A stretch of 46,559 nt of DNA from Thermoplasmatota archaeon (GTDB lineage Archaea > Thermoplasmatota > JASEFT01), in the NCBI GenBank assembly GCA_030018475.1, contig JASEFT010000004.1, positions 1 through 46,559 of the forward strand, read 5' to 3'. Positions within the stretch are counted from its first letter, which is position 1. Each line of letters starts with the position of its first letter. The position numbers and the translations under genes are program-made. Under the pieces are notes generated by a model, which saw only the letters and a program-made list of their open reading frames with translations, searched no databases and was not told the origin of the DNA. This document shows positions 738-44,152 of this stretch, piece by piece.

Positions 738-2156
738 ATGCCAGAAATTTCTAAACTTGAAGAAAAGCTAGCTTTGAGAAAGGAGAGCATTTGGCTGAAG
801 GCGGACAAAGCGAAAAAGAATAAGATATTCGAGTTTGCAGAGTGCTATAAAAAATTTATTGATGAATGCAAGACAGAGCGTCAAGCAGTAAAATATATTG
901 TTGAGCTTATAAGAAAGAAAGGTTTTAGAGCTTTGAATGAATTAAAAGAATTAAAGCATGGCGATAGAATTTATGAAGTCAATCGTCATAAAAATATCAT
1001 TCTAGCAGTTATTGGTACTGAAAGTTTAGAAAAAGGTCTTAATATAATAGTTGCTCATTTAGACGCCCCCAGATTGGATTTGAAGCCAAATCCTCTTTAC
1101 GAAGATAAAGATTCTTATCTAGGGCTTTTCAAAACCCACTACTATGGTGGTATAAAAAAATATCACTGGGTGAATATACCGCTTGCTTTGTATGGTAAAG
1201 TAATTAAAAAAGACGGTAAAGAGCTAAATATCAAAATAGGCGAGGATAATGACGAGCCTGTACTTGTCATTCCTGATTTATTACCTCATCTGTCTAAAAA
1301 AATTCAAGATGAGCGCAAACTTAGTGAGGGTATAAAAGGTGAGGAGCTTAATATAATTGTAGGCAGTATTCCTGTGAAAGATAAAAAGGTAAAAGAGAAA
1401 ATCAAGTTGCAATTGCTCAACGAGCTAAACAAAAAATACGGCTTGGTTGAAGAGGATTTTGTATCTGCTGAGTTAGAGTTTGTACCCGCAGGCAAATCTA
1501 AAGATGTGGGATTCGATTGCTCTTTAATAGGCGCTTATGGGCAGGATGACAGAATATGCGCTTATACTTCATTACAAGCTATTCTTGAACTGAAAAGCCC
1601 TAAAAGAACTTGTATTGGTTTGTTTGTAGAGAAGGAAGAGATAGGCAGTGAAGGCGCTACAGGTATGAAATCAATGTTCTTTGAGGATTTTGTGAGTAGA
1701 CTATTAAGCCTAACCGGAAAATATGACGAATATATTTTGAAAAATGCGCTTGCAAACTCAAAAGCAATTTCTGCAGATGTAAATGGGGCACTTGACCCTT
1801 CTTTCAAAGAAGTGCATGAAATTGCAAATGCAGCCAAACTTGGCTTAGGAGTTGTTATTACAAAATATACGGGTGCCGGTGGCAAGTTCATGGCTAGCGA
1901 AGCTACTGCAGAATATGTTGGCGCAGTTCGTAACTTGCTAAACAGAGAGAAAATCGCTTGGCAGGCAAGCGAACTTGGTAAGGTAGATGAAGGCGGTGGT
2001 GGCACAGTAGCTAAATACCTTGCAGAATATAATATGGACGTTATAGATATGGGGCCACCTATTTTGAGCATGCATTCGCCATTCGAGATTTCTAGTAAAG
2101 CAGATATTTACGAAAGTTATAGAGCTTACAGAGCTTTTTTCAGTTCGATGGAGTAG
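738..2156 (+). CDS. M18-family aminopeptidase (aspartyl aminopeptidase-like)
   Basis: 472 aa. AHLDAPRLDLKPNP motif and overall layout typical of peptidase M18. Confidence 0.8.
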   Translation: MPEISKLEEKLALRKESIWLKADKAKKNKIFEFAECYKKFIDECKTERQAVKYIVELIRKKGFRALNELKELKHGDRIYEVNRHKNIILAVIGTESLEKGLNIIVAHLDAPRLDLKPNPLYEDKDSYLGLFKTHYYGGIKKYHWVNIPLALYGKVIKKDGKELNIKIGEDNDEPVLVIPDLLPHLSKKIQDERKLSEGIKGEELNIIVGSIPVKDKKVKEKIKLQLLNELNKKYGLVEEDFVSAELEFVPAGKSKDVGFDCSLIGAYGQDDRICAYTSLQAILELKSPKRTCIGLFVEKEEIGSEGATGMKSMFFEDFVSRLLSLTGKYDEYILKNALANSKAISADVNGALDPSFKEVHEIANAAKLGLGVVITKYTGAGGKFMASEATAEYVGAVRNLLNREKIAWQASELGKVDEGGGGTVAKYLAEYNMDVIDMGPPILSMHSPFEISSKADIYESYRAYRAFFSSME

Positions 2157-2160
2157 AAAG

Positions 2161-2925
2161 GTGACTGATTATTACAAGCGAATAATTCCATGTCTTGACA
2201 CGCACCATGGTAAATTGGTTAAAGGTGTGAGATTCAAAAGTTTAATAGAAATAGGCGATCCTGTAGAATATGCCGAGCTATATGAAGAGCAAGGAGCTGA
2301 CGAACTCGTGCTTTTAGACATAGCTTCAACTCCTGAAGGCAAGCCTACATTGTTAGAACTCGTTCGAAAAGTAGCAAGCATAATTTCAATACCATTAACA
2401 GTGGGCGGTGGTATAAGGAGCATAGAGGATGCTAGAGCGATTCTAGACTGCGGGGCATCTAAAATCTCAGTTAACACTGCCGCAGTAAAAAGGCCCGAAT
2501 TAATAAGAGAACTTTCTGACGAGTTTGGCACACGCTCTGTGGTTTGCGCTATTGACGGCAAACTTGTAAGGGAAGGCAAGTGGGAGGTATATATCTCAGG
2601 AGGCTCAGAGGGTACAGGTATAGATATGCTCGAGTGGGGTAAGCAAGTTAAAACTTTAGGCGCTGGTGAGATTCTTTATACAGGTATACATACAGACGGC
2701 ACTGAGGAAGGCTACGATGTAGAAGGTACTCGTGCGCTGGCAGTATTTACAAATCTGCCTATAACCGCCTCGGGCGGCGCAGGTAGTTTAGAGCATATTT
2801 TTGAAGTTTTAAGTGAAGGCAAAGCATCAGCGGCACTTGCAGCTAGCATTTTCCATCACAGAAAATACACTGTAAAAGAAGCAAAGGAATACTTGCACAA
2901 ACGAGGAATTCCAGTTAGACTCTAG
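2161..2925 (+). CDS. hisF: imidazole glycerol phosphate synthase, cyclase subunit HisF
   Basis: IIPCLD...LVKGVRF, GADELVLLDI, PLTVGGGIRS and ASGGAG motifs; 254 aa. Confidence 0.9.
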   Translation: MTDYYKRIIPCLDTHHGKLVKGVRFKSLIEIGDPVEYAELYEEQGADELVLLDIASTPEGKPTLLELVRKVASIISIPLTVGGGIRSIEDARAILDCGASKISVNTAAVKRPELIRELSDEFGTRSVVCAIDGKLVREGKWEVYISGGSEGTGIDMLEWGKQVKTLGAGEILYTGIHTDGTEEGYDVEGTRALAVFTNLPITASGGAGSLEHIFEVLSEGKASAALAASIFHHRKYTVKEAKEYLHKRGIPVRL

Positions 2926-2967
2926 GAACGAAAAACTTAAACTCTTTCAAATTGATATTTCCTAAAC

Positions 2968-3927
2968 ATGAGAGTTAAAGAGCCAGAAAATTTAGATATA
3001 GAAGATTTTATAAAAAGGAAGGTGGAGGAAATTTCTTCTGCTGTTGGAAACGGTATTGCGATTAGTGCACTCTCAGGAGGCGTAGATTCTTCAACAGCTA
3101 CTTTATTAGGCTATAGAGCTTTGGGCGAAAGACTTAAAACTTATTTTATTGACAGTGGTTTAATGCGCGAGAACGAGCCTCAAAAAGTAGCTGAGCTTTT
3201 CAGAAAGCTTGGCGTGAAAGTTGAAATAATAGATGCGAAAGAGCAATTTTTTAAAGCTTTAAAAGGGGTAGTGGACCCAGAAGCTAAAAGGGAATGTATC
3301 ACACAAACTTTTTACAAAAATGTATTTGCCAAGCTCATAAAAGAAAGCGGCGCTAAATATCTTCTGCAAGGTACTATACTCACAGATATAGAGGAGACTG
3401 TAGCAGGTATAAAGCGCCAGCATAACGTTTTCGAGCAGTTGGGCATAAATCCCAAAGAGGCTTTTGGATACAAAATCGCAGAGCCTCTTAAAGAGCTTCG
3501 TAAAGATGGCGTAATAAAAGTAGCTAAAGCTTTAGGGCTGCCTGAAGAATTATATGCAAGAATACCTTTTCCAGGACCAGGCTTGGCTGCAAGAGTTATA
3601 GGCGAAGTTACTCCTCAAAGAATAGAGCTTGTAAGGAAGGCAACGAGCATTGTCGAAGAAGAGTTAGCACATACAAAAGCATTCCAGTATCTAGCAATCT
3701 TGCATGAAGATAGAGTTACAGGAATAAAAGAAGGCAAAAGAAAATTTGGCTATCAGATTGAGGTAAGATGCTGGGAAAGTAAAGATGCAAGAGTGGCAGC
3801 GCCTACAAAAATTAAGTTTGAAACTTTAGAAAAACTAGCTAAAAGAATAGTAACCGAACTGCCTGAGATAGTTTCCGTCACCTATAACATAACTCCCAAA
3901 CCACCTTCAACTATAGAGGCAGTATAG
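2968..3927 (+). CDS. guaAB: GMP synthase subunit B (ATP pyrophosphatase subunit, archaeal split GuaA)
   Basis: PP-loop SALSGGVDSS; length and C-terminal dimerisation region typical of archaeal GuaA subunit B. Confidence 0.85.
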   Translation: MRVKEPENLDIEDFIKRKVEEISSAVGNGIAISALSGGVDSSTATLLGYRALGERLKTYFIDSGLMRENEPQKVAELFRKLGVKVEIIDAKEQFFKALKGVVDPEAKRECITQTFYKNVFAKLIKESGAKYLLQGTILTDIEETVAGIKRQHNVFEQLGINPKEAFGYKIAEPLKELRKDGVIKVAKALGLPEELYARIPFPGPGLAARVIGEVTPQRIELVRKATSIVEEELAHTKAFQYLAILHEDRVTGIKEGKRKFGYQIEVRCWESKDARVAAPTKIKFETLEKLAKRIVTELPEIVSVTYNITPKPPSTIEAV

Positions 3928-3937
3928 GAGCTTAAAA

Positions 3938-5329
3938 ATGACCGGATTGTTTGGAGTTGTTAGTAAAGAAGACTGCGCTAAAACGCTGTTTTATGGTACT
4001 GACTATCACACTCATTTAGGCGCAGGCTACGGGGGATTAGCGATATGGAGCGACAAACTCTACAGAAGTATTCATAACATATCACAAGCGCAATTCAAAT
4101 CTAAATTCGTTGATGAATATAAAGAAATGAAGGGCAATATAGGGATAGGTGTTATTAGTGATAGAGATGTACAACCGATAACTCTAGCTTCACAATTCGG
4201 TACTTTCGCAATAGCTACCGCAGGATTGGTTGAGAACGCTGACGAGCTAGCCCAGTCTCTTCTAAAAAAGGGCGAAGCTTTTGCAGAAGTTGGTGAAGGT
4301 GTTATTAATACTACAGAGCTTGTTGGAAGGTTAATAGTTCAAAGCGATAGCATTGTAGAGGGCATTGAAAAAGCGCTCTCTTCAATTAAAGGCTCAATAT
4401 CACTTTTAATTCTTGCTGAAGAAGGTATTTATGCGGCAAGAGACGAGAGAGGGCGCTTGCCATTAGTAATAGGAGAAAGAGGAAAAGACATTGCCATAGC
4501 TTCAGAATCCTGCTCTTTTTCAAATTTAGGGTTTAAAATAAAAAAATACATTCAGCCTGGTGAAACAATATTGGCAACTAAAGAAGGACTTAAAACTAAA
4601 AAAGGTGGTAGTGGCGAAGGCAAGCTTTGCGCGTTTTTGTGGATCTATACAGGCTATCCAGCCTCCAGTTATGAAGATGTGTGTGTAGAGTCAGTAAGGG
4701 AAAGGTGCGGAAGAGCGCTAGCAAAAAAAGATAATTTCAAGGCAGACCTTGTTGCAGGAGTGCCTGACTCAGGCACTGCCCACGCTATAGGCTATGCAAT
4801 GGAATCAAAGCTACCTTTTAGAAGACCTTTAGTTAAATATTCGCCAAGTTGGGATAGGAGCTATACTCCGCCTTCGCAAGAAATCAGAGAGCTAGTTGCT
4901 AAAATGAAGTTAATTCCTATCAGAGAAATAATCGATGGTAATAGAATAGTATTATGTGAAGATTCTATTGTTAGGGGTACACAGCTAAAAAATCTAGCAA
5001 TTCAAAAGCTCTGGGAGAACGGCGCTAAGGAGATACATTTAAGACCTGCATGCCCTCCTTTGCTCTATCCTTGCAAATTTTCACTTACTACTAGAACAAT
5101 CCAAGAGCTTGTAGCTCGTAGAGCTATAAGAGCTATTGAGGGTAAGGATATAGAAGATATAACAGAATATTTAAATCCAGCCTCCAAAAAATATTATCAA
5201 ATGGTAGAATGGATTAGAAATGAACTTAACGTTACTACTCTGAGATATCAAACTTTAGATGACATGGTAGAAGCAATAGGCTTACCAAAAGACAAATTAT
5301 GCCTTTATTGCTGGTGTGGAGAGGAATAA
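3938..5329 (+). CDS. amidophosphoribosyltransferase (PurF)-like protein lacking the N-terminal Cys nucleophile
   Basis: Ntn-type N-domain plus PRTase motif (IVLCEDSIVRGTQL) and C-terminal CLYCWCG cysteines. N-terminus reads MTGLFGV instead of MCG(I/V)FG. Confidence 0.65.
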   Translation: MTGLFGVVSKEDCAKTLFYGTDYHTHLGAGYGGLAIWSDKLYRSIHNISQAQFKSKFVDEYKEMKGNIGIGVISDRDVQPITLASQFGTFAIATAGLVENADELAQSLLKKGEAFAEVGEGVINTTELVGRLIVQSDSIVEGIEKALSSIKGSISLLILAEEGIYAARDERGRLPLVIGERGKDIAIASESCSFSNLGFKIKKYIQPGETILATKEGLKTKKGGSGEGKLCAFLWIYTGYPASSYEDVCVESVRERCGRALAKKDNFKADLVAGVPDSGTAHAIGYAMESKLPFRRPLVKYSPSWDRSYTPPSQEIRELVAKMKLIPIREIIDGNRIVLCEDSIVRGTQLKNLAIQKLWENGAKEIHLRPACPPLLYPCKFSLTTRTIQELVARRAIRAIEGKDIEDITEYLNPASKKYYQMVEWIRNELNVTTLRYQTLDDMVEAIGLPKDKLCLYCWCGEE

Positions 5330-17159: not shown

Positions 17160-17173
17160 TGGACCCGTCGGGA

Positions 17174-17284
17174 ATCTCGATCTCCAGATGAAATACGATT
17201 TATTCTGCACAAAAATGCTTGCGCATTTTTGTGATTCGGATGAGAGCGGAGCTCTCATCCTCTCTCGCATTTCCTTCGGAAATG
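17174..17284 (-). other. tRNA-Ala intron 2 (111 nt, T-loop position 59/60)
   Basis: hBHBh': T-stem TCGGG/CCCGA, central helix UUCG/CGAG, bulges AGC and AUU, inner helix AUUUCC/GGAGAU. The body holds three perfect hairpins: GCATTTCC/GGAAATGC, GGATGAGAGC/GCTCTCATCC and CACAAAAATGC/GCATTTTTGTG. Confidence 0.75.
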
Positions 17285-17306
17285 CTCGAACCCGAGTCCT
17301 CCACAT

Positions 17307-17366
17307 ATCTGGGAAAAGAATGGATTAACCACCGTTTTTCTTTCTTCCCCTGAAAGGTTCCTTTCT
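17307..17366 (-). other. tRNA-Ala intron 1 (60 nt, canonical 37/38 position)
   Basis: hBHBh' layout: anticodon stem, CUUG/CCAG central helix (one mismatch), 3-nt bulges CAA and AUA, inner helix GAAAGG/CUUUUC. Confidence 0.75.
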
Positions 17367-17403
17367 TGCAAGTGTGGCGATCTTCCACTGATCTACGGGC
17401 CCG

Positions 17404-17485
17404 AGCCCTTTCTTTCTCTTTTTCAAAGAGAAAGAAAGCGTTCACGGAAAGAAAGAGAAACTAGGTTATCCTGTAAGGGATAACC
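17404..17485 (+). repeat. three-strand homopurine/homopyrimidine module A (hairpin + mirror-repeat third tract + flanking 8-bp hairpin)
   Basis: AGCCC; Y 17408-17421 CTTTCTTTCTCTTT; loop TTC; R1 17425-17438 AAAGAGAAAGAAAG (perfect complement); linker CGTTCACG; R2 17447-17460 GAAAGAAAGAGAAA (exact reverse of R1); then GGTTATCC-TGTAAG-GGATAACC. Confidence 0.8.
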
Positions 17486-17550: not shown

Positions 17551-17628
17551 GGGTTACAAAGTAACCCTTGCTTCTCTTCTTTTTCCGTCAACGCTTTTTC
17601 TTCTCTTCTCAAGAGAAGAAAAAGGGCT
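17551..17628 (-). repeat. three-strand homopurine/homopyrimidine module B (same architecture as A, inverted orientation)
   Basis: On the plus strand: GGGTTAC-AAA-GTAACCC; Y2 17572-17585 TTCTCTTCTTTTTC; linker CGTCAACG; Y1 17594-17607 CTTTTTCTTCTCTT (exact reverse of Y2); loop CTC; R 17611-17624 AAGAGAAGAAAAAG (perfect complement of Y1); GGCT. Confidence 0.8.
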
Positions 17629-17649: not shown

Positions 17650-17657
17650 ATATTAAA
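17650..17657 (-). promoter_or_regulatory. TATA-like box TTTAATAT (minus strand), 21 nt upstream of the AGCC that opens module B
   Basis: A/T octamer at archaeal TATA-to-start spacing. The same octamer at similar spacing precedes module C (44063-44070). Confidence 0.3.
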
Positions 17658-17694
17658 TAGGTTTCTAGAAAAATATTTTAGTGGGCCCGATGAG

Positions 17695-17745
17695 ATTTTC
17701 AAGCCGCAACTACGGGTTGAAAATGTAGTGGACGTAGTCCACGGC
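17695..17745 (-). other. tRNA-Ile intron 2 (51 nt, T-loop; exact junction ambiguous within the repeated AAT)
   Basis: TTCGAAT|GCCGTGGACTACGTCCAC...TTGAAAAT|CTCAT. UUCG/UGAA central helix and GCCG/CGGC inner helix with one extra nucleotide (relaxed BHB). Confidence 0.7.
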
Positions 17746-17768
17746 ATTCGAACTCATGACCTCCCGGT

Positions 17769-17916
17769 CACTCACAGCCCTTTCTTACTAAGGAGTGGGA
17801 AGCACTCCTTACGTTCCTAGGAATTGCCTTAGGCAATTCCTGCGGATCTTTTTCACAAAAAGAAAGAAACTGACTGGCGTTTTTCTTTTCTCTTCCAGAG
17901 AAAAGAAAAAGGCTGC
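17769..17916 (-). other. tRNA-Ile intron 1 (148 nt, 37/38)
   Basis: hBHBh': CCCGG/CCGGG stem, CUGA/UGAG central helix (one G.G mismatch), bulges UAG and UGA, inner helix CAGCC/GGCUG. The body holds the AGCC-TTTTTCTTTTCTC-loop-GAGAAAAGAAAAA hairpin plus AGGAATTGCC/GGCAATTCCT and TAAGGAGTG/CACTCCTTA hairpins. Confidence 0.8.
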
Positions 17917-17975
17917 TATCAGCCGGGCGCTCCAACCATGCTAAGCTACGGGCCCACGTTAGCAGGTATGTATGC

Positions 17976-17984: not shown

Positions 17985-19709
17985 CTAAGTTCTTTTAAAC
18001 ATTCTGTCAAGCTCTTTTCTACTCAGTTCTATAATTGTAGGTCTGCCGTGAGCACATGTATAAGGCTCTTCTAAAGAGCCCAGCTCTTTTATTAATTTCT
18101 CAATTTCTTGAATGCCTAGCTTTTCGTTAGCTTTAATTGCAGATTTACATGCCAATAGCTCTATTAGTTTGCGTCTCGTCCCTTCACCCGCTTCCAATTT
18201 GCCAGCACTTGCAAGTTCGTCAATAACATCTACAAAATCTTCTTTCTTCTTCAATTTTCCTAAGAGAATTGGCACTGTACTTAACTTATACATAGCTCTA
18301 CCGAAATTTTCTATTTTAAAGCCAAGCTCTTCAAATATTCCTAAATTGTTTCTCAGTACAAACTCTTCCTTAGGGTTGAGTTCCAGGACCAAAGGCTCAA
18401 GTAACTCTTGAATCTCAATATTCTCACTTTGAGCTTTCAATTTCTCCAGCATTATTCTTTCATGAGCTGCATGCTGGTCTATAACTAAAATAGCGTTTCG
18501 AGCCTCTGCAACTATAAAACTATCCAAAGCCTGTCCAACAATTCTAAGTTCAGGCAGTTTGCGACCCTCTTTTAAAACAGTAATTCTTTCTTCCTGCAAA
18601 TATTGTGGCTTGATAAGCTTTACACCTTCTTTGGGCAAGTGCGGCAATGGCTTTAGCTCAGGTGCTTTGTAAATTTCACTTATCAGTTTAATTTCTTCTC
18701 TTTTAGGCTCAGGAATTAATTTTTCATGGCTCAATGCTTCCCTAACGCAAGCGACTACAGAACCGTAAATTTCAATTTCATTGCTGAACTTGAGCTGGCT
18801 TTTTGTAGGATGTATGTTCACATCAACTAGTTTGGGATCAATTTTAATAGCCACTACTGCTACTGGGTATCTATCTTTAGTTACCAGTCTGAAATAGGCA
18901 TCTTTAATTGCATCGCTAACTATCCTGCTCGTTATATACCTCCTATTTACATAAATAGATTGGTGCGAAGGAGTAGCTCTTGTAAGCGAAGGTTTTGATA
19001 TATAACCTGAGATTGCAATTGTTTCTGTCTTGTAACTCAAAGGTATCAAAGCTCTTCCATACTCTTTTCCATAAATTGCAGTAATAGTTTCTAGCATGCT
19101 TTTAGAGCTTGGTGAGAATAGAAGCTCTTCATTGTTACTAACTAATTTAAATGTTTTATGGTAATGTATAAGCGCATATCTAGTAACAACATCAATTATA
19201 TGACTCAACTCTATCCTTCTGGATTTCAAGAATTTTCTTCTTACAGGTACATTATAGAATAGATTTTTTACGGTAACAGTTGTGCCAACTGGCGAGCCTA
19301 TATCTTTTGTTTCCTTCGGTTTGCCATATTCTACTGCAATGTAAGTGCCGACTTCGCATTCTTGCGTTTTAGTTACCATTTCCGTAAAACTCACAGATGC
19401 AATACTTGGTAAAGCTTCTCCTCTAAACCCTAAAGTTTCAAGTTTCTCTAAATCTTCTATTTTTTCTAGTTTGCTTGTAGAATGCCTTTCAAAAGCAAGC
19501 TTTGCGTCTTCTCTACTCATTCCGCAACCGTCATCGCGAACCAATATTTTTTTCAGTCCCGCATCTTCTACCTCAATATAAATTTTACTCGCGCCTGCGT
19601 CAAGGGCGTTTTCTACAAGCTCTTTCACGACACTTGCAGGTCTTTCTATAACTTCTCCGGCAGCAATTTTAGAAATTGTCTCGCTATCAAGGATTTTTAT
19701 TTTCTGCAT
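17985..19709 (-). CDS. mutL: DNA mismatch repair protein MutL
   Basis: GHKL ATPase motifs (AGEVIERPASVVKELVENALDAG, DDGCGM), C-terminal dimerisation domain with QHAAHER. Confidence 0.92.
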   Translation of the reverse strand: MQKIKILDSETISKIAAGEVIERPASVVKELVENALDAGASKIYIEVEDAGLKKILVRDDGCGMSREDAKLAFERHSTSKLEKIEDLEKLETLGFRGEALPSIASVSFTEMVTKTQECEVGTYIAVEYGKPKETKDIGSPVGTTVTVKNLFYNVPVRRKFLKSRRIELSHIIDVVTRYALIHYHKTFKLVSNNEELLFSPSSKSMLETITAIYGKEYGRALIPLSYKTETIAISGYISKPSLTRATPSHQSIYVNRRYITSRIVSDAIKDAYFRLVTKDRYPVAVVAIKIDPKLVDVNIHPTKSQLKFSNEIEIYGSVVACVREALSHEKLIPEPKREEIKLISEIYKAPELKPLPHLPKEGVKLIKPQYLQEERITVLKEGRKLPELRIVGQALDSFIVAEARNAILVIDQHAAHERIMLEKLKAQSENIEIQELLEPLVLELNPKEEFVLRNNLGIFEELGFKIENFGRAMYKLSTVPILLGKLKKKEDFVDVIDELASAGKLEAGEGTRRKLIELLACKSAIKANEKLGIQEIEKLIKELGSLEEPYTCAHGRPTIIELSRKELDRMFKRT

Positions 19710-22300
19710 TTCTTTTTTAGCTCCCCAATTTTTATAAGAGCTTCTAAAGGCGTTAGTTTATTAATATCAAGCTCTTTCAACTCTTTGATTACTTCGCTAT
19801 CTTCGCTACTAAGTGAAGGTAGTATAAGCTGGGTATATCTAGGAGAAATAGTCCTTATTTTTTTATCTTCGCTAACAACATCTATCATACTTTCATACTC
19901 TAATTTTTTTAATATCTCTTCAGCATGCTTTACTAATTCTTTAGGTAAGCCTGCAAGCGCAGCTACCTTTACTCCATAACTTTTATTTGTACCTCCTGGT
20001 ATGAGCTTTCTCAGAAATATTATTTCGTCTTTCTCTTCTTTAACTGCAATATTGTAATTCACTACGCCATGGAGAACTTCTGCAAGCTCTGTTAAATGAT
20101 GATAATGTGTGGCGAACATTGTTTTTGCACCTATTTTTTTGCTATGAATATACTCCGCAACAGCCCATGCAATGCTCAAGCCATCAAAAGTACTAGTTCC
20201 TCTACCTATCTCGTCAAGTAGAATCAAAGATTTAGAAGTTGCATTCTTTAAAATATTAGCAACTTCTGTCATTTCTACCATGAAAGTAGATTGCCCTCTA
20301 ACTAAATCATCGAAAGCGCCAACCCTTGTGAATATTCTGTCCACAATTCCAATGCTGGCATATTTAGCAGGAACGAAACTACCTATCTGCGCAAGTAAAG
20401 TTATAAGAGCTACCTGGCGCATGTATGTAGATTTTCCAGACATGTTAGGCCCCGTGATAATCATCATTTTGTTCCCTCTGCAATCTAGCAAAGTATCATT
20501 AGGTACAAAGCTCTGAGTAGCACGCTCCACTACAGGATGTCTTCCATCTACAATTTTAATAATATCATCTTCGGTAATCTCAGGCTTGGTATAATTATTT
20601 GCAACTGCAGTAACTGCTAAAGAGTAAATAGTATCTATTACCCCGACAGCTTTTGCAGTCTCTAACACTCTATTAGCTTGCTCTGCTATACTTTTACGCA
20701 CTTTCTGAAAAAGCTCAGCTTCTAAATTTTTCACACGCTCTTCTGCAGTTATTATGAGGGCTTCTTTCGCCTTTAGCTCTTCAGTTGTAAATCTTTCTGC
20801 GTTAGCTAGAGTTTGCTTTCTAATATAATCTTGAGGCACTAATTTTAAATTAGCCCTACTCACTTCAATATAATATCCGAAAATACTTGTATAGCCCACT
20901 TTAAGCGATTTTATGCCTGTTCTTGCTCTTTCCCTTGCTTCTAGCGTGGTTATCCAATTCTTGCCTCCTTGAAGCTCGTTCCTTAAGCTATCAAGCTCTT
21001 TATCATAACCTTTTCTGATAATACCAATTACTTCTTTGATGTGCGTGGGGGGCTCTTCAACGATAGCATTTTCTATAAGCTCAGCAATATCTTCAAGGCT
21101 ATCTATTCGCTCAGCTAACTCCTTTAGAATGCTAACCGCCAATAAATTATCAGGAATGCTAAGAACGAGCTTTTTCAGCTCTTTCGAAAACTTAACTGAG
21201 TTTTTTAAGTTTATAATATCTCTAGGAGTAGCATTACCGTAAGAAATTCTAGTGATGAGCCTCTCTAAATCTTTTATTTTGCTCAACCGCTCTTCTAAAT
21301 CCTTTCTTAAAAAAATATCTTTAACTAAAATTTCAACTGCATTCAAACGCTTTATGATTTCAGATTTGTCTATTAAAGGACAGAGAAGCCACCTTCTTAG
21401 AGTTCTTGCACCCATTCCTGTGAGAGTGCTATCTAAAACAGCAACTAACGTATTATTCTCGCTGCCGTCGCGCACATTTTGCAAAAGCTCTAAATTCCTT
21501 GCTGTGGTAGCGTCTAGCCCCATGTATTGAGTTGATAAATAATGTTTTATTTTAGCGATATGTGGAATTGATTTTTGAGTCTCTTCTAAATATGAAAGTA
21601 CAGCTCCTGAAGCTCTTATAGCAAGCTCCAGATTCTCAATTTCCAAAATCTCTCCTTTAAAAAGCTCTTTTAGCTTTCTTAGCGCTTTCTCATACTCAAA
21701 TTCTTTCTCAGAATATTCTGTTATGTATATGCTACGAGCTACGAAAAGCTCCTTCAACTTACTGTTCTCAATTATTGTGTGAGGTGCTATAACCTCAGAG
21801 GGCTTAAATCTAGAAATCTCAGAGCTTAGCTTCTCATAGCTACTATCTAGCTCTAGTTGAGTAGTTAGAAACTCGCCTGTAGAAATATCTACGAAAGCGA
21901 CTCCTAAACCATTATTAGATCCCACCATCGCCATCAAATAGTTATTAGCTTTCTCTGACAGTATAGAATCTTCAAGTATCGTCCCTGGCGTAATTACTCT
22001 AACTACATCTCTTTTAACGACTCCTTTCGCTAGTTTAGGATCTTCTAACTGCTCACAAATAGCTACTTTATAGCCTTTTCTAACAAGTCTATTGAGGTAG
22101 GCATCGAGCGCATGATAAGGCACGCCTGCTAAAGGCGCATTTTCACGAGATGTTAATACAATATTAAGCTCTTTTGAAACGAGCTGAGCATCTTCATAAA
22201 AAGTTTCGTAGAAATCACCAACTCTAAACAATAATATTGTATTTGGATATTTCTGCTTGATCGCTTGATATTGCGCCATCATAGGCGTAAGCTTTACCAA
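19697..22300 (-). CDS. mutS: DNA mismatch repair protein MutS
   Basis: TPMMAQY N-terminus, Walker A GPNMSGKST, DEIGRGTST, TH(Y/F)H motifs; overlaps mutL by 13 nt. Confidence 0.92.
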   Translation of the reverse strand: MVKLTPMMAQYQAIKQKYPNTILLFRVGDFYETFYEDAQLVSKELNIVLTSRENAPLAGVPYHALDAYLNRLVRKGYKVAICEQLEDPKLAKGVVKRDVVRVITPGTILEDSILSEKANNYLMAMVGSNNGLGVAFVDISTGEFLTTQLELDSSYEKLSSEISRFKPSEVIAPHTIIENSKLKELFVARSIYITEYSEKEFEYEKALRKLKELFKGEILEIENLELAIRASGAVLSYLEETQKSIPHIAKIKHYLSTQYMGLDATTARNLELLQNVRDGSENNTLVAVLDSTLTGMGARTLRRWLLCPLIDKSEIIKRLNAVEILVKDIFLRKDLEERLSKIKDLERLITRISYGNATPRDIINLKNSVKFSKELKKLVLSIPDNLLAVSILKELAERIDSLEDIAELIENAIVEEPPTHIKEVIGIIRKGYDKELDSLRNELQGGKNWITTLEARERARTGIKSLKVGYTSIFGYYIEVSRANLKLVPQDYIRKQTLANAERFTTEELKAKEALIITAEERVKNLEAELFQKVRKSIAEQANRVLETAKAVGVIDTIYSLAVTAVANNYTKPEITEDDIIKIVDGRHPVVERATQSFVPNDTLLDCRGNKMMIITGPNMSGKSTYMRQVALITLLAQIGSFVPAKYASIGIVDRIFTRVGAFDDLVRGQSTFMVEMTEVANILKNATSKSLILLDEIGRGTSTFDGLSIAWAVAEYIHSKKIGAKTMFATHYHHLTELAEVLHGVVNYNIAVKEEKDEIIFLRKLIPGGTNKSYGVKVAALAGLPKELVKHAEEILKKLEYESMIDVVSEDKKIRTISPRYTQLILPSLSSEDSEVIKELKELDINKLTPLEALIKIGELKKKCRK

Positions 22301-31629: not shown

Positions 31630-31965
31630 ATCTAAGTGTAGTGATCGTATTGAACTCTGGTTGATCCTGCCAGAGGTCGCCGCTATTGGGATACGCTTAA
31701 GCCATGCGAGTCTAAGGAACGCAAGTTCCTTGGCGTACTGCTCAGTAACACGTGGATAATTTACCCTTAGGTGGGGAATAACTTCGGGAAACTGAGGATA
31801 ATACCCCATAGGCTTAGAATGCTGGAATGCTTCTAAGCTCAAAGCTTCGGCGCCTAAGGATAAGTCTGTGGCCTATTAGGTTGTAGCAAGTGTAACTTAC
31901 TTGCTAGCCTACGATGGGTACGGGCGCTGAGAGGCGTTGCCCGGAGATGGACTCTGAGACATGAG

Positions 31966-31997
<32 letters not shown>

Positions 31998-32384
31998 ACT
32001 CCACAATGTGCGCAAGCACGATGGGGGAATCCCAAGTGCCTATACTTAATGTATAGGCTGTTCCCTTGTCCAAAAAACAAGGGGAGTAAGGGCTGGGTAA
32101 GACGGGTGCCAGCCGCCGCGGTAATACCCGCAGCCCAAGTGGCGATCACTTTTATTTGGTCTAAAACGTCCGTAGCTGGTTCAGTAAATTTTTGGGTAAA
32201 TCGAAATGCTTAACATTTCGAATTCCGAGAAGACTGCTGGACTTGAGACAGAGTGGGGTCAGAAGTACTCCTGGGGTAGGGGTGAAATCCTGTAATCCTA
32301 GGAGGACTACCAGTGGCGAAGGCGTCTGACTAAAGCTGCTCTGACAGTGAGGGACGAAGCCCTGGGGCGCAAACGGGATTAGAT

Positions 32385-32483
32385 AGAAGCCTTTCTTTCT
32401 CTTTTCGGAAAAGAGAAAGAAACTCTTCAGGGAAAGAGAAAAGAAAATTTCTTTTTTCTTTTCCCCTGAAGGACTTCCTAGAT
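32385..32483 (+). other. 16S rRNA mini-intron (99 nt) in the 790 loop, with a canonical BHB
   Basis: GGGATTAGAT|A...AT|ACCCCGG. Outer helix CGGG/CCCG, central helix UUAG/CUAG, bulges AUA and AUA, inner helix GAAGCC/GG(A)CUUC. Splicing restores GGATTAGATACCCCGGTAGTCC. Confidence 0.8.
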
Positions 32484-32582
32484 ACCCCGGTAGTCCAGGG
32501 TGTAAACGCTGCAGACTTGGTGCAGGGGAAGCTACGAGCTTGCCCTGTGCCGGAGAGAAGTTGTTAAGTCTGCTACCTGGGG

Positions 32583-32629
<47 letters not shown>

Positions 32630-33036
32630 GCAACGGGTGGAGCGTGCGGTTTAATTGGATTCAACGCCGAGAAGCTTACCGGGGGCGACGGATATATGAA
32701 GGTCAAGCTAACGACTTTACCAGATTATCCGAGAGGTGGTGCATGGCCGTCGTCAGTTCGTACCGTAAGGCATTCTGTTAAGTCAGATAACGAACAAGAC
32801 CCCTGCTTTTAGTTGCAAACCGGAGCTCCGGCTCTGGTGCGACACTAAAGGGACTGCTGGCGCTAAGTCAGAGGAAGGAGGGGGCTACGGTAGGTCAGTA
32901 TGCCCCTAATCCCCCGGGCTACACGCGCGCTACAAAGGCTGGGACAATGGGCTACGATGCCGAAAGGCAAAGTCAATCCCTAAACCCAGTCATAGTTCGG
33001 ATTGAGGATTGCAACTCATCCTCATGAAGCTGGAAT

Positions 33037-33086
33037 TCGCAGGAGTAAACTCCTTCTCTCAGCAGTTTGCTCCGCAAACAGCAGAT
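33037..33086 (+). other. second ~50-nt insertion in the 16S rRNA (between GGAAT and CCGTAGTAATCGCG); boundaries approximate
   Basis: Conserved GCTGGAAT(C)CGTAGTAATCGCG is interrupted. The insert folds into AGGAG-TAAA-CTCCT and CAGCAGTTTGC-TCC-GCAAACAGCAG (two A.A mismatches). Confidence 0.65.
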
Positions 33087-33339
33087 CCGTAGTAATCGCG
33101 TATCAAAAATGCGCGGTGAATATGCCCCTGCTCCTTGCACACACCGCCCGTCAAGCCATCCGAGTTGTGTCTAAGTGAGGGTGAAGTTATTGCTTCGCTC
33201 AAACTTGGGTTCAGCGAGGAGGGCTAAGTCGTAACAAGGTATCCGTAGGGGAACCTGCGGATGGATCACCTCCTACGTTATAGAAAGGTGTGATTCGAAG
33301 CTGCTTGCAATGCAGCTAATGACGCAGGTCTGCCTTGAA

Positions 33340-37685: not shown

Positions 37686-39329
37686 ATGATAGGTCAAGGC
37701 ACTCCTATTTTAGTATTAAAAGAAGGGACTACTAGAGAAAAAGGCAAGAGTGCGCAGAGCGCAAATATCACAGCTGCAAAGGCAATTGCAGACGCTGTAA
37801 GAAGTACATTGGGTCCTCGCGGTATGGATAAAATGCTTGTAGATAGTATGGGCGATGTTGTGATAACTAACGACGGAGTAACTATACTTAAAGAAATAGA
37901 TGTAGAGCACCCAGCTGCTAAAATGCTCGTAGAAGTTGCTAAAACACAGGATCAGCAATGCGGTGATGGTACAACCACAGCTGTAATACTCGCTGGAGAA
38001 TTGCTGAAAAACGCAGAAAGTTTGGTTGATCAGAACATTCATCCAACAATAATAGTTAGCGGCTATAGACTTGCATCTAACAAAGCTTGCGAAATACTAG
38101 ATAAAATTGCAGAGAAAGTAAGTATTAAAGACAAAGAAATACTGCCTAAAATTGCAGCTACTGCAATTATGAGCAAGAGCGCTGCAGCAAGTAAAGACTT
38201 ACTTGCAGATATTGCAGTAAAAGCGGTTACGAGCATTGTTGAAGAGCGCGACGGAAAAATAATTGCAGATACAGATAACGTGCAGATAGTGAAGAAGCAT
38301 GGCGGCTCTATAGACGATACAGAGCTTGTTGAGGGCATTATTGTAGATAAAGAGGTAGTGCATGCAGGAATGCCTAAAAGAGTAGAGAATGCGAAAATAG
38401 CACTGCTAGATTGCGCTCTTGAAATAAAGAAGACAGAAGTAGATGCTAAAATAGAGATTACAGATCCAAAGCAGTTACAAGCGTTTCTTGCAGAAGAAGA
38501 GAATATGCTGAAGAGAATGGTTGATAAAGTCAAAGCCAGTGGCGCAAACGTAGTGTTCTGTCAGAAAGGAATCGATGATCTTGCTCAGCACTATCTTGCA
38601 AAAAATAATATCTACGCAGTAAGAAGAGTAAAAGAGAGTGATATGAAGAAACTTGCAAAAGCGACTGGCGGTAAGTTAGTTACTAGAATTGACGATTTAA
38701 CGAAGGAAGATTTAGGCAATGCGAAGGAAGTTTATGAAAAGAAAATAGGCGAAGATAATCTTACTTTCGTTACAGGCTGCAAGGAAGCGAAAGCAGTTTC
38801 AATATTGCTGAGAGGCGGTACTGAACACGTGGTTGACGAAATGGAGCGCTCGGTACACGATGCACTCAGTGTAGTTTCCTGCGCTCTAGAAGACGGTAAA
38901 ATAATAACAGGCGCTGGAGCTGCAGCTACAGAAATAGCATTAGCGCTTAGAGATTATGCCTCCACTGTTGGTGGCAGAGAGCAAATGGCTATCGAGAGTT
39001 TTGCAGATGCAATTGAAGTAGTGCCTAGAACACTTGCTGAAAATGCAGGTATGGATCCTATAGATACACTTATAGAGCTAAGGAAAGCGCATAAGGAAGG
39101 TAAAGGGACTGTAGGCGTAAACGTGCTTGCAAACAAAATCAGTGATATGAAAGGTATTGTGATAGAGCCTATTCGTGTAGGCAGACAGGCAATACTCTCT
39201 GCTACAGACGCTACGGTAATGATCCTTAGAATTGACGATATTATTGCTGCTAAAGCGCCTAAAGCGGAGGCTCGTCCTCCAACGCCTCCAGGAGGCCCAG
39301 GAGGCCTGGGCGGGGAAGAAGAATACTAA
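37686..39329 (+). CDS. ths: thermosome subunit (group II chaperonin)
   Basis: [27 protein letters not shown] and VGGREQ motifs; Gly-rich C-terminal tail. Confidence 0.95.
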
Positions 39330-44062: not shown

Positions 44063-44070
44063 TTTAATAT
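44063..44070 (+). promoter_or_regulatory. TATA-like box TTTAATAT, 23 nt upstream of the AGCC that opens module C
   Basis: Same octamer and similar spacing as upstream of module B. Confidence 0.3.
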
Positions 44071-44093: not shown

Positions 44094-44152
44094 AGCCCTT
44101 TTCTTTTTCTTCCAAAGAAAAAGAAAAGTCCTTCAGGGGAAAAGAAAAAGAA
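44094..44152 (+). repeat. three-strand homopurine/homopyrimidine module C
   Basis: AGCC; C98+Y 44099-44111 TTTTCTTTTTCTT; loop CCA; R1 44115-44128 AAGAAAAAGAAAAG (perfect complement); linker TCCTTCAGGG; R2 44139-44152 GAAAAGAAAAAGAA (exact reverse of R1). Confidence 0.8.

Follow-up and report, generated by a model that had tools for sequence, protein, structure and literature searches.

A 46,559-nt stretch of contig JASEFT010000004.1 (the window; archaeal DNA with about 38% G+C) carries a tRNA-Ile gene, a tRNA-Ala gene and a 16S rRNA gene, all three interrupted by short introns, and inserts of a similar build lie between genes of the same stretch. Here, we describe these introns and inserts as copies of one family of modular elements. 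They are recognised by a hairpin with a homopyrimidine arm (Y) and a homopurine arm (R). About twelve perfect hairpins were found in an exhaustive scan of the 46.6 kb; five of them are of this Y:R type, and all five have 14 bp and a loop of 3 nt (14+3+14 nt). They are located at 17408-17438, 17594-17624, 17880-17910, 32392-32422 and 44098-44128, that is, in intergenic modules A and B, in intron 1 of the tRNA-Ile gene, in the 16S intron and in intergenic module C, respectively. A preliminary description of the window had listed five Y-loop-R hairpins with an AGCC flank; all are present, with AGCC directly 5′ on the strand that it had named.

The architecture is seen best in a full-length, free-standing element of 225 nt (17628→17404, minus strand) that consists of modules B and A. 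On the minus strand its order is AGCCC, Y:R hairpin, CGUUGACG, a third tract R′, three hairpins, a third tract Y′, CGUGAACG, Y:R hairpin and GGGCU, and a single C separates this GGGCU from G1 of tRNA-Ala, so that the element ends 1 nt before the tRNA. Its fold energy is −100.2 kcal/mol (z = −9.9). Module B (17572..17628, minus strand) is the 5′ module, AGCC-CUUUUUCUUCUCUU-GAG-AAGAGAAGAAAAAG-CGUUGACG-GAAAAAGAAGAGAA, the third tract of which mirrors the purine arm perfectly over 14 nt. Module A (17404..17460, minus strand) is the 3′ module on the element strand, UUUCUCUUUCUUUC-CGUGAACG-CUUUCUUUCUCUUU-GAA-AAAGAGAAAGAAAG-GGCU, and has the mirror-image design: here the third tract, Y′, is made of pyrimidines, lies before the hairpin and mirrors its pyrimidine arm without a mismatch over 14 nt. 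The preliminary description took module A on the plus strand and found four of the five hairpins in the same orientation; the "opposite" sense of module A is simply that of the 3′ end of an A+B element on the minus strand. Module C (44094..44152, plus strand; AGCC-CUUUUCUUUUUCUU-CCA-AAGAAAAAGAAAAG-UCCUUCAGGG-GAAAAGAAAAAGAA) is a solo 5′ module, again with a perfect 14-nt mirror; it lies between an HSP20 gene and an AAA_33 kinase gene and is built like the 5′ two thirds of the 16S intron. Read from AGCC, all three modules (3/3) have a purine arm R, a linker of 8-10 nt and a tract R′ that is R reversed over all 14 nt, and they account for all three purine mirror repeats of this kind in the whole window.

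The copies in RNA genes have the features of archaeal introns of the bulge-helix-bulge (BHB) type, in which a central helix H of 4 bp with a 3-nt bulge on either side is flanked by the helices h and h′ and the cleavage sites are symmetric. Intron 1 of tRNA-Ile (148 nt, position 37/38) covers 17769..17916 on the minus strand, exactly the interval given in the preliminary description. At its 5′ end, (C)AGCC, one strand of helix h′, is followed by the hairpin (17880..17910, minus strand; UUUUUCUUUUCUCU-GGA-AGAGAAAAGAAAAA, 14 bp). The order is G-CAGCC, Y:R hairpin, linker CGCCAGUCA, a decayed hairpin, a central cassette of two hairpins and GGCUG-UGAG-UG; the closing helix is GCAGCC:GGCUGU and the fold has a z-score of −5.9. 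The BHB motif, read by hand, runs from the anticodon stem over UG|A38, CUGA:UGAG (with one G.G mismatch in helix H) and UA37|G to CAGCC:GGCUG. The hairpin arms are identical to those of a 3′ module outside the window (L142; sequences from elsewhere are given L numbers here), and the linker CGCCAGUCA is also of the 3′ type. Since it has no mirror tract, this intron looks like a rearranged copy.

The intron of the 16S rRNA gene (99 nt; 32385..32483, plus strand) interrupts the 790 loop of helix 24. The BHB, again read by hand, consists of h GGG:CCC, AU|A, H UUAG:CUAG, AU|A and h′ GAAG(CC):(GG-A)CUUC; an additional A is left unpaired across from the 3′ bulge. Excision of 32385-32483 restores GGGATTAGAT|ACCCCGG (also written GGAUUAGAU|ACCCC or GGGAUUAGAU|ACCCCGG). 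The 5′ layout is like that of module C: GAAGCC, the hairpin at 32392-32422, YC-CUUCAGGG and a purine tract. This third tract (32432-32442, GAAAGAGAAAA) is an 11-nt mirror of the purine arm and has an alternative pairing with 32448-32463, the second hairpin with a further pyrimidine tract that had been pointed out before. It had also been held that the third tracts of the introns are not perfect mirrors, which is true of tRNA-Ile (no mirror, 5/14) but not of the 16S intron (perfect over 11 nt, 12/14). The insertion point is the binding region of the primers 785F/806R, and amplicon surveys may miss the lineage.

Intron 1 of tRNA-Ala (60 nt; 17307..17366, minus strand) is the remnant of a module truncated at its 5′ side: the linker CCUUUCAGGGG and a purine tract are left, AGCC and the Y arm are missing. 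The linker TCYTTCAGGG(G) is indeed common to module C, the 16S intron and this remnant, as described before (TCCTTCAGGGG, CTCTTCAGGG and CCTTTCAGGGG). Unrelated intron bodies at the same sites in related genomes would have spoken against a common origin; instead, the orthologous tRNA-Ala of L126 has a complete module at the very position (37/38) of the window's truncated intron 1, and its intron 2 is homologous as well. A tRNA from a metagenome (L143) has a perfect hBHBh′ motif with h′ = AGCC:GGCU, as read by hand. Judged from these motifs, AGCC...GGCU makes up helix h′, the inner one of the BHB, and by analogy with the established pathway of cleavage the tRNA and 16S copies would be removed as ordinary archaeal introns. 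In that pathway, the splicing endonuclease EndA makes the cuts, RtcB does the joining, and many excised introns are circular. Hand reading gave no BHB with the flanks of the A+B element, module C or the intergenic copies L086, L118 and L120; the A+B element and module C lie outside genes and interrupt no stable RNA.

An identical TATA-like box, TTTAATAT, is found 21 nt upstream of AGCC in module B (17650-17657, minus strand) and 23 nt upstream in module C (44063-44070, plus strand), and AGCC might be a transcription start in these two modules. The idea of a promoter loses weight in that a second assembly of the same species, GCA_030019275.1 (L169:2094-2165), lacks the box in front of its module C. 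The kinase gene downstream of module C is identical there, and all sequence to the left of AAATGAAAGA|AGCC differs (a 330-aa open reading frame (ORF) and AdoHcyase, not HSP20/DnaJ/DnaK), which is due either to rearrangement or to incorrect assembly at the module. Short-read contigs of the window species stop at or inside modules (L170:1-30 and the ends of L171 and L081, the last from a near-identical strain of the window organism); the modules may be sites at which DNA recombines or at which assemblies break off.

Metagenomes were scanned with the pattern AGCCCTTT-Y8-N{3,9}-R8-AAAG-N{6,14}-GAAA-R8, which fixes 16 bases plus purine/pyrimidine classes and leaves the inner 8 nt free of any demand for complementarity or mirror symmetry. 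The scan returned 65 loci from many groundwater or sediment projects; three look like eukaryotic low-complexity sequence. Most modules lie within tRNA genes of many isotypes, straight after exon sequence. Brute-force excision followed by ARAGORN, which works for hosts with a single intron and is noisy (isotype calls vary and tRNAs with several introns fail), was used for insertion positions only. Modules are located in the anticodon loop at 37/38 (L085, L089, L095 (Pro), L099, L120, L126 (Ala(TGC)), L137, L143), in the D-loop (of tRNA-Leu in L103, L106 and L117) and in the T-loop (L097, L109, L124). Others follow 5S rRNA (L087, L127) or are intergenic (L086, L088, L096, L107, L139, L141), and L137 has a cassette nested within a Y:R hairpin loop. 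Full-length elements of 160-350 nt have the two-module, strand-symmetric plan of the A+B unit. Carriers of the commonest linker, CGWCUGGCG, belong to the Thermoplasmatota (L118, by its histidyl-tRNA synthetase (HisRS), L143 and L088), and one carrier of the linker CCCUYGNG (L099) clusters with a protein of Candidatus Diapherotrites (DPANN). Going by sequence, the family is one of modular, strand-symmetric insertion elements of about 60 to 350 nt in uncultivated Thermoplasmatota and at least one DPANN (Diapherotrites) genome. Viral contigs contained no module, the eleven matches to a linker 17-mer being chance hits without the tracts; a virus or plasmid source is hence unsupported.

A further feature of the modules is the third tract. 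Among unique modules selected by the pattern, 44 of 48 combine a perfect hairpin of 11-14 bp with a perfect full-length mirror. In bystander hairpins, which had not been selected by the pattern, the mirror is perfect in 14 of 30 and has one mismatch in another 9, compared with 1.2% perfect when a flank is matched to the mirrored arm of another module. When 56 unique modules were oriented and stacked, 672 of 710 positions (95%) formed consistent C-G*G or T-A*A triples. Nearly every column holds both states (column 6, for example, 29 versus 25), and errors are concentrated at both ends. Within one element, the sequences of the two modules are never the same, and each mirror tract fits the hairpin of its own module. 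Coordinated change is exemplified by the homologous 3′ modules of L086 and L109, in which a C is shifted by one nucleotide in both pyrimidine tracts (Y′ and Y), as is the matching G in R, altogether six substitutions. No copying process can produce the mirror relation, which must therefore be maintained by selection.

Further properties of the modules bear on their structure. Stems are almost all perfect and nearly free of G.U pairs; a strand test of G.U versus C.A had too few informative cases. The purine arms contain 24% G, and GG occurs in 1 of 42 distinct arms, where by a rough estimate about half would have it by chance. About 20 of the 28 linker types can form mini-hairpins of 2-3 bp, among them CG[UCUGG]CG, CC[UUCG]GG, CC[CUCG]GG, CCC[UUUA]GGG, CG[UUCA]CG and CC[UUCA]GG. 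Since such a linker reverses the chain, the third tract comes to lie antiparallel to the like strand of the hairpin. A mirror-symmetric homopurine/homopyrimidine tract with a short spacer is what H-DNA, the intramolecular triplex of duplex DNA, calls for in sequence, and the modules have it; as a sequence design, a hairpin with a mirror tract is the textbook intramolecular triplex. From the three-way covariation, the modules probably, although far from certainly, form triple helices. A pairing between the third tracts of the two modules, R′ and Y′, was considered as well and judged uninformative, because the complementarity of 0.80-0.92 is, by a rough estimate, about that expected by chance for A/T-rich tracts.

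Several observations speak for movement of the elements. In paralogous tRNA-Leu genes the module type sits at different positions, in the D-loop of Leu(TAA) and Leu(GAG) and at 37/38 of Leu(CAA); altogether, related introns are found in the D-loop, at 37/38 and in the T-loop of different genes, the pattern by which transposed families of tRNA introns are recognised. Moreover, about 100 virtually identical nucleotides, starting with AGCC, are shared by an anticodon-loop intron (L109) and two intergenic copies (L086, L120) with unrelated flanks. The spacer between a GT4 glycosyltransferase gene and a divergent HisRS gene is empty in L156 (79 nt; HisRS 73% identical). In L118 and L086 it harbors a full element; the element of L150-L155 has the 3′ module alone, joined by an array of hairpin cassettes that varies, and L157 and L149 have further variants. 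Contigs L150 and L154 are otherwise identical and differ by 134 nt of extra cassettes with palindromic spacers such as UAACAUGUUA; apparently, the cassette arrays expand and contract. At the HisRS site, the element has inserted into the center of a small dyad (TTTTTCC-ATGA-GAAAAC), and this point is upstream of both TATA boxes; all insertion sites observed are hairpin loops or centers of inverted repeats. Target-site duplication was considered and dropped: direct repeats (a palindrome plus 3 nt) at the 16S site (UAGAUA) and in L103 (GGCCAAC) build the BHB, and there are none at L143, at tRNA-Ile or at the intergenic site. They may reflect the symmetry that the BHB needs and not transposition. 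The proposal of the preliminary description that intron hairpins and intergenic modules derive from one spreading family is borne out by the 65 loci, the shared 100 nt and the empty and filled site. That there is such a family, that it has moved during evolution and that AGCC:GGCU serves in the BHB is, from the sequences at hand, very probable.

How might such an element work? A complete element would comprise AGCC, a Y:R hairpin, a short self-pairing linker, R′, one to several GC-richer hairpin cassettes, Y′, a linker, the second Y:R hairpin and GGCU. In an RNA gene the stem of the host would provide helix h, and splicing endonuclease and ligase would remove the element from the D, anticodon or T loop of a tRNA or from the helix-24 loop of 16S rRNA; outside RNA genes (tRNA-Ala leader, gene spacers, divergent-promoter spacer) it would persist unspliced. 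Each end module is envisaged as a paper clip, in which the linker turns the chain and the third tract runs back along the hairpin to give an intramolecular triplex of 11 to 14 triples. The 5′ module (Y-R-R′) would be of the Pu*Pu:Py type with reverse-Hoogsteen pairs, the 3′ module (Y′-Y-R) of the Py*Pu:Py type with Hoogsteen pairs; that C and G are isolated in the arms fits the need to avoid adjacent C+ triples. The clips would fold each end locally and rigidly, thereby sparing the host RNA from interference, and would hold AGCC and GGCU together so that the BHB can form. They would probably also make the excised RNA, or a single-stranded or extruded form of the DNA, unusually stable, and this stability would favor persistence of the element and its spread into other hairpin loops. 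This role as folding clamp and stabiliser is the likeliest of several, yet doubtful in itself. The explanation as a whole we regard as moderately probable.

A number of points weigh against this explanation or limit it. If the 5′ module acts in the sense RNA, it would need a purine-motif triplex, and the 3′ module needs 2 to 4 protonated cytosines; moreover, A/T-rich arms with isolated G/C suit the pyrimidine and not the purine motif. RNA third strands are reported to form purine-motif triplexes poorly. That both module types are equally conserved although the arms suit one of them fits a constraint at the level of DNA better than a purely RNA-level one. The 16S intron and some DPANN-type copies have an alternative Watson-Crick partner for the third tract or the linker; in L099 and L089 the linker pairs with sequence beyond R′. 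Intron 1 of tRNA-Ile has no mirror, and evidently the hairpin alone is enough for a spliceable intron. Since neither the A+B element nor the intergenic copies form a BHB with their flanks, splicing cannot be the sole reason for their persistence; the HisRS site has no target-site duplication, its flanks being inverted and not direct repeats. On the other side, three observations favor RNA as the level of action: the UUCG and YNMG-type linkers are special in the AGCC-sense RNA only, the asymmetric elements share their orientation in the four tRNA-hosted copies (L097 and L109:4290, with near-identical flanks, may be the same tRNA), and AGCC:GGCU is an RNA helix of the BHB.

Two explanations that do without a mobile family have little to recommend them. 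The tracts are simple A/G and C/T sequence, and the preliminary description had itself raised the possibility of generic low complexity. However, Y-loop-R hairpins of at least 10 bp occur at 107 per Mb in the window and at 0.7 per Mb in 1.34 Mb of unrelated bacterial and archaeal DNA, where the single example is GC-rich; the composite module pattern is matched 3 times by the window and 0 times by 100 shuffles; and perfect mirrors are observed in 47 to 92% of modules as against the 1.2% of the cross-module comparison. Chance sequence without biological meaning is thereby refuted, and we give it practically no credence. Convergence would mean that a stable stem beside h′ helps long BHB introns, that such stems are of the Y:R kind in a purine-loaded genome and that the intergenic modules are unrelated terminators or 5′-UTR elements. 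Purine/pyrimidine runs of at least 11 nt are in fact over-represented in the window (106 versus about 54 expected, mostly in coding DNA), tRNA-Ile intron 1 has the hairpin only, and modules B and C have the TTTAATAT box 21-23 nt upstream. Yet intron and intergenic copies have geometry, AGCC flank, linker types and central cassettes in common, a mirror tract has no role in a terminator, and the box is absent from the same module in GCA_030019275.1. The roughly 100 identical nucleotides in one intron and two intergenic copies already contradict convergence, which we consider very unlikely.

The rivals that accept a mobile family are more serious. It could be a structure of the DNA, and not of the RNA, that is selected: the combined inverted and mirror repeat would extrude as a cruciform, its arms would capture the neighboring strand (H-DNA or "nodule" double triplexes) and the product would be recognised by the recombination or transposition machinery, splicing merely allowing copies to survive within RNA genes. 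The strand-symmetric architecture and the equal conservation of both module types agree with this, as do the insertion into a divergent-promoter spacer that is probably not transcribed and is empty in a relative, targets that are all centers of inverted repeats, stems nearly without G.U pairs, contigs of carrier genomes that break at modules, and the exact mirror symmetry that H-DNA requires (PMC11667243). Against it stand the several linkers that are YNMG/UUCG-type tetraloops solely on the AGCC-sense RNA strand, the one fixed orientation of asymmetric elements in the tRNA-hosted copies mentioned above and the clear RNA role of AGCC:GGCU as h′; furthermore, A/T-rich tracts of 14 bp with spacers of 8-13 nt are short for the extrusion of H-DNA. 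To our knowledge, there is also no enzyme that uses such a DNA structure. This is the main rival, and we think it somewhat improbable. Less probable still, and in our view unlikely, are non-autonomous elements like repetitive extragenic palindromes (REP), their paired form (REPIN) or miniature inverted-repeat transposable elements (MITE). Here, AGCC and hairpin would be the site of a tyrosine HUH transposase (RAYT, IS200/IS605-type) or another transposase encoded elsewhere, with the mirror tract as part of the single-stranded DNA substrate. A conserved tetranucleotide does abut a palindrome, two modules are paired in inverted orientation, copies are numerous and polymorphic for presence and absence, and the intergenic insertion has no target duplication. 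A site-specific enzyme, however, would need a constant sequence, and the arms differ between ends and among copies; REPIN and MITE have constant terminal inverted repeats and target-site duplications, and here only AGCC/GGCU and the architecture are inverted. The covariation speaks for structure and not for recognition of a sequence, many copies are clean BHB introns, and a scan of 20 window proteins revealed no transposase, no such search being made at the 65 loci. We know of no cognate transposase of the module elements.

We thus keep to the reading of a spliceable mobile element with clip-like end modules. It is tempting to go further and to speculate that real helices of 11-14 consecutive triples, longer than any natural RNA triplex known to us and with purine-motif ones included, form the functional heart of a cross-phylum mobile element; this element would insert into hairpin loops and, by virtue of its AGCC/GGCU ends, become a BHB intron wherever the loop of the host provides a short palindrome; at least some tRNA and rRNA introns would then have originated as DNA insertion elements made harmless by the splicing endonuclease. 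This we consider possible, but not probable.

The genes around the elements are those of a Thermoplasmatota archaeon. The thermosome gene (37686-39329) is 99% identical to that of a metagenome-assembled genome (MAG) listed at NCBI as "Candidatus Thermoplasmatota archaeon" and 73-79% identical to Thermoplasmata MAGs. Because of these matches we take the window organism to be an uncultivated member of the Thermoplasmatota; the unlinked rRNA genes agree. An Asgard archaeon, suggested by an Arf/Ras GTPase adjoining a MutL relative, was dropped as thermosome and HisRS put the carriers in the Thermoplasmatota. The 16S rRNA gene (31654..33274, plus strand) is the sole Rfam gene of the window: a search with Rfam gave SSU_rRNA_archaea alone, both at the gathering threshold and at E ≤ 0.1, and the modules match no family. 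No 23S or 5S rRNA gene is present in the window up to 31 kb upstream or 13 kb downstream of it. ARAGORN called no tRNA in the raw sequence; after removal of the predicted introns in silico it called tRNA-Ile(GAT) (17682..17955, minus strand) and tRNA-Ala(TGC) with G3:U70 (17160..17402, minus strand), both with two introns. The second introns are in the T-loops (about 17745..17695 in tRNA-Ile and 17288..17180 in tRNA-Ala, both minus strand) and are other hairpin cassettes, with a homologous intron 2 in the tRNA-Ala of L126. A bacterial-type mutS-mutL pair (17985-22300) adjoins the tRNA locus; the window MutL has at most 45% identity to anything beyond a handful of short contigs, the best match in genome contigs being 43%. 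Its relatives in L082 and L083 (53-59% identity) have no tRNA beside mutL, so that there is no orthologous tRNA-Ile to compare. A cluster of DnaK, DnaJ, HSP20 and thermosome genes is found at 37.7-43.9 kb.

Other parts of the elements, and other copies, deserve mention. The two-hairpin central cassette of tRNA-Ile intron 1 (17790-17860) reads GAUCCG-CAGG[hp]CCUAGGAACGUAAGG[hp]CCUUAGUAAG, and in L090, L109, L120, L124 and L137 it reads (A)UGCGACGGAAAA..UUUUCCUAGCAACGUAYGGAAU..AUUCCRUAGUA. It is also seen alone downstream of tRNAs and within the loop of a Y:R hairpin, and perhaps it moves or functions as a unit in its own right. Downstream of the 3′ ends of many tRNA genes on these Thermoplasmatota contigs (L095, L103, L124, L136, L143, L145) there are arrays of hairpins built as ..ACGAGGAAUUUUGC-loop-GCAAAAUUCCGAAGU..; tandem G-A next to the stem gives them a K-turn- or loop-E-like appearance. 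A complete module lies within an ORF upstream of the gene for ribosomal protein L29 on an archaeal contig of 32% G+C (L091:371-430, and the same region in L084); it would read SPFFFSRKKESLRGKKKS in a Lys/Glu-rich tail and may be a translated insertion or an mRNA intron. Finally, L133 encodes an RtcB RNA ligase, the tRNA-splicing ligase, with an intein (1291-4161; DINC|LAAGS...VVSN|CGVR), and a module-bearing tRNA is on the same contig.

The origin of archaeal tRNA and rRNA introns and the way in which they multiply are a long-standing question, and the case for their "transposition" has so far rested solely on similar introns found at different positions in tRNAs. A body plan that can be recognised in a spliceable intron, in a leader insert and in an intergenic insert with an empty allele makes the question of origin directly testable. 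The three-way covarying modules would be a new natural triple-helix motif, in RNA or DNA. In practice, standard finders overlook tRNA genes that contain the elements, as ARAGORN did here, the elements insert into 16S rRNA where common primers bind, and they appear to break metagenome assemblies of these lineages.

The modules share with H-DNA the exact mirror symmetry, the short spacer and the availability of both Py*Pu:Py and Pu*Pu:Py triplexes (PMC11667243). Unlike H-DNA, they combine the mirror repeat with an inverted repeat, which allows a single strand to make up the triplex on its own; the tracts, at 11-14 nt, are short, and the motif is a conserved, covarying part of an archaeal mobile element and not a eukaryotic simple repeat. 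A related intramolecular triplex form is "nodule DNA". Among RNAs, Tycowski, Steitz and colleagues are said to have described the element for nuclear expression (ENE), which together with an A-rich tract forms a triple helix in MALAT1, MEN-β and PAN RNA, and ENE-like structures in RNAs of plant and fungal transposable elements. The 3′ module has the same strand order (Hoogsteen pyrimidine, Watson-Crick pyrimidine, purine), mostly U*A-U triples with isolated C+*G-C and an association with selfish elements, and module A directly upstream of a tRNA 5′ end recalls the MALAT1 triple helix upstream of mascRNA. Different from the ENE, there is no U-rich internal loop that clamps a 3′ poly(A)-like tail; the modules are plain hairpins of 11-14 bp with a third strand attached by a mini-hairpin, have a purine-motif counterpart at the other end of the element, are mostly internal to introns and not at transcript 3′ ends, and gave no Rfam ENE match at E ≤ 0.1. 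With REP, REPIN and MITE the elements have in common that they are short, multicopy and palindromic, with two inverted units, a tetranucleotide by the hairpin, presence/absence polymorphism and intergenic copies. They are set apart by variable terminal sequences, by the intergenic site without target-site duplication and by the many copies that are spliceable in essential RNA genes.

The closest relatives are the BHB introns themselves. Transposition of such introns among tRNA genes of Thermoproteales was reportedly noted by Fujishima et al. in 2010, and here, too, related sequences occur at different positions of different genes. The introns of archaeal tRNA and rRNA genes have been reviewed (PMC4090602), and intron-rich tRNA sets are described for Atabeyarchaeia and Freyarchaeia (PMC11291895). 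Like known BHB introns, the copies described here in RNA genes appear to belong to the protein-spliced type defined by h-B-H-B-h′, with several per tRNA and at non-canonical positions, and the 16S intron has no homing endonuclease, as known from rRNA mini-introns. Unlike them, they come from a lineage of Thermoplasmatota and DPANN, have a shared, strand-symmetric modular body of terminal hairpins and mirror modules, and are also found unspliced in intergenic DNA, with an empty orthologous site. Modular body, strand symmetry and unspliced intergenic copies are not reported in the papers on archaeal introns that we found, our literature search gave no paper that links archaeal introns to triplexes or mirror repeats, and a triplex-type module appears to be undescribed for archaeal introns. 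Altogether, the elements appear to be mobile BHB introns, a known kind, equipped with a structural module that appears to be new to them.

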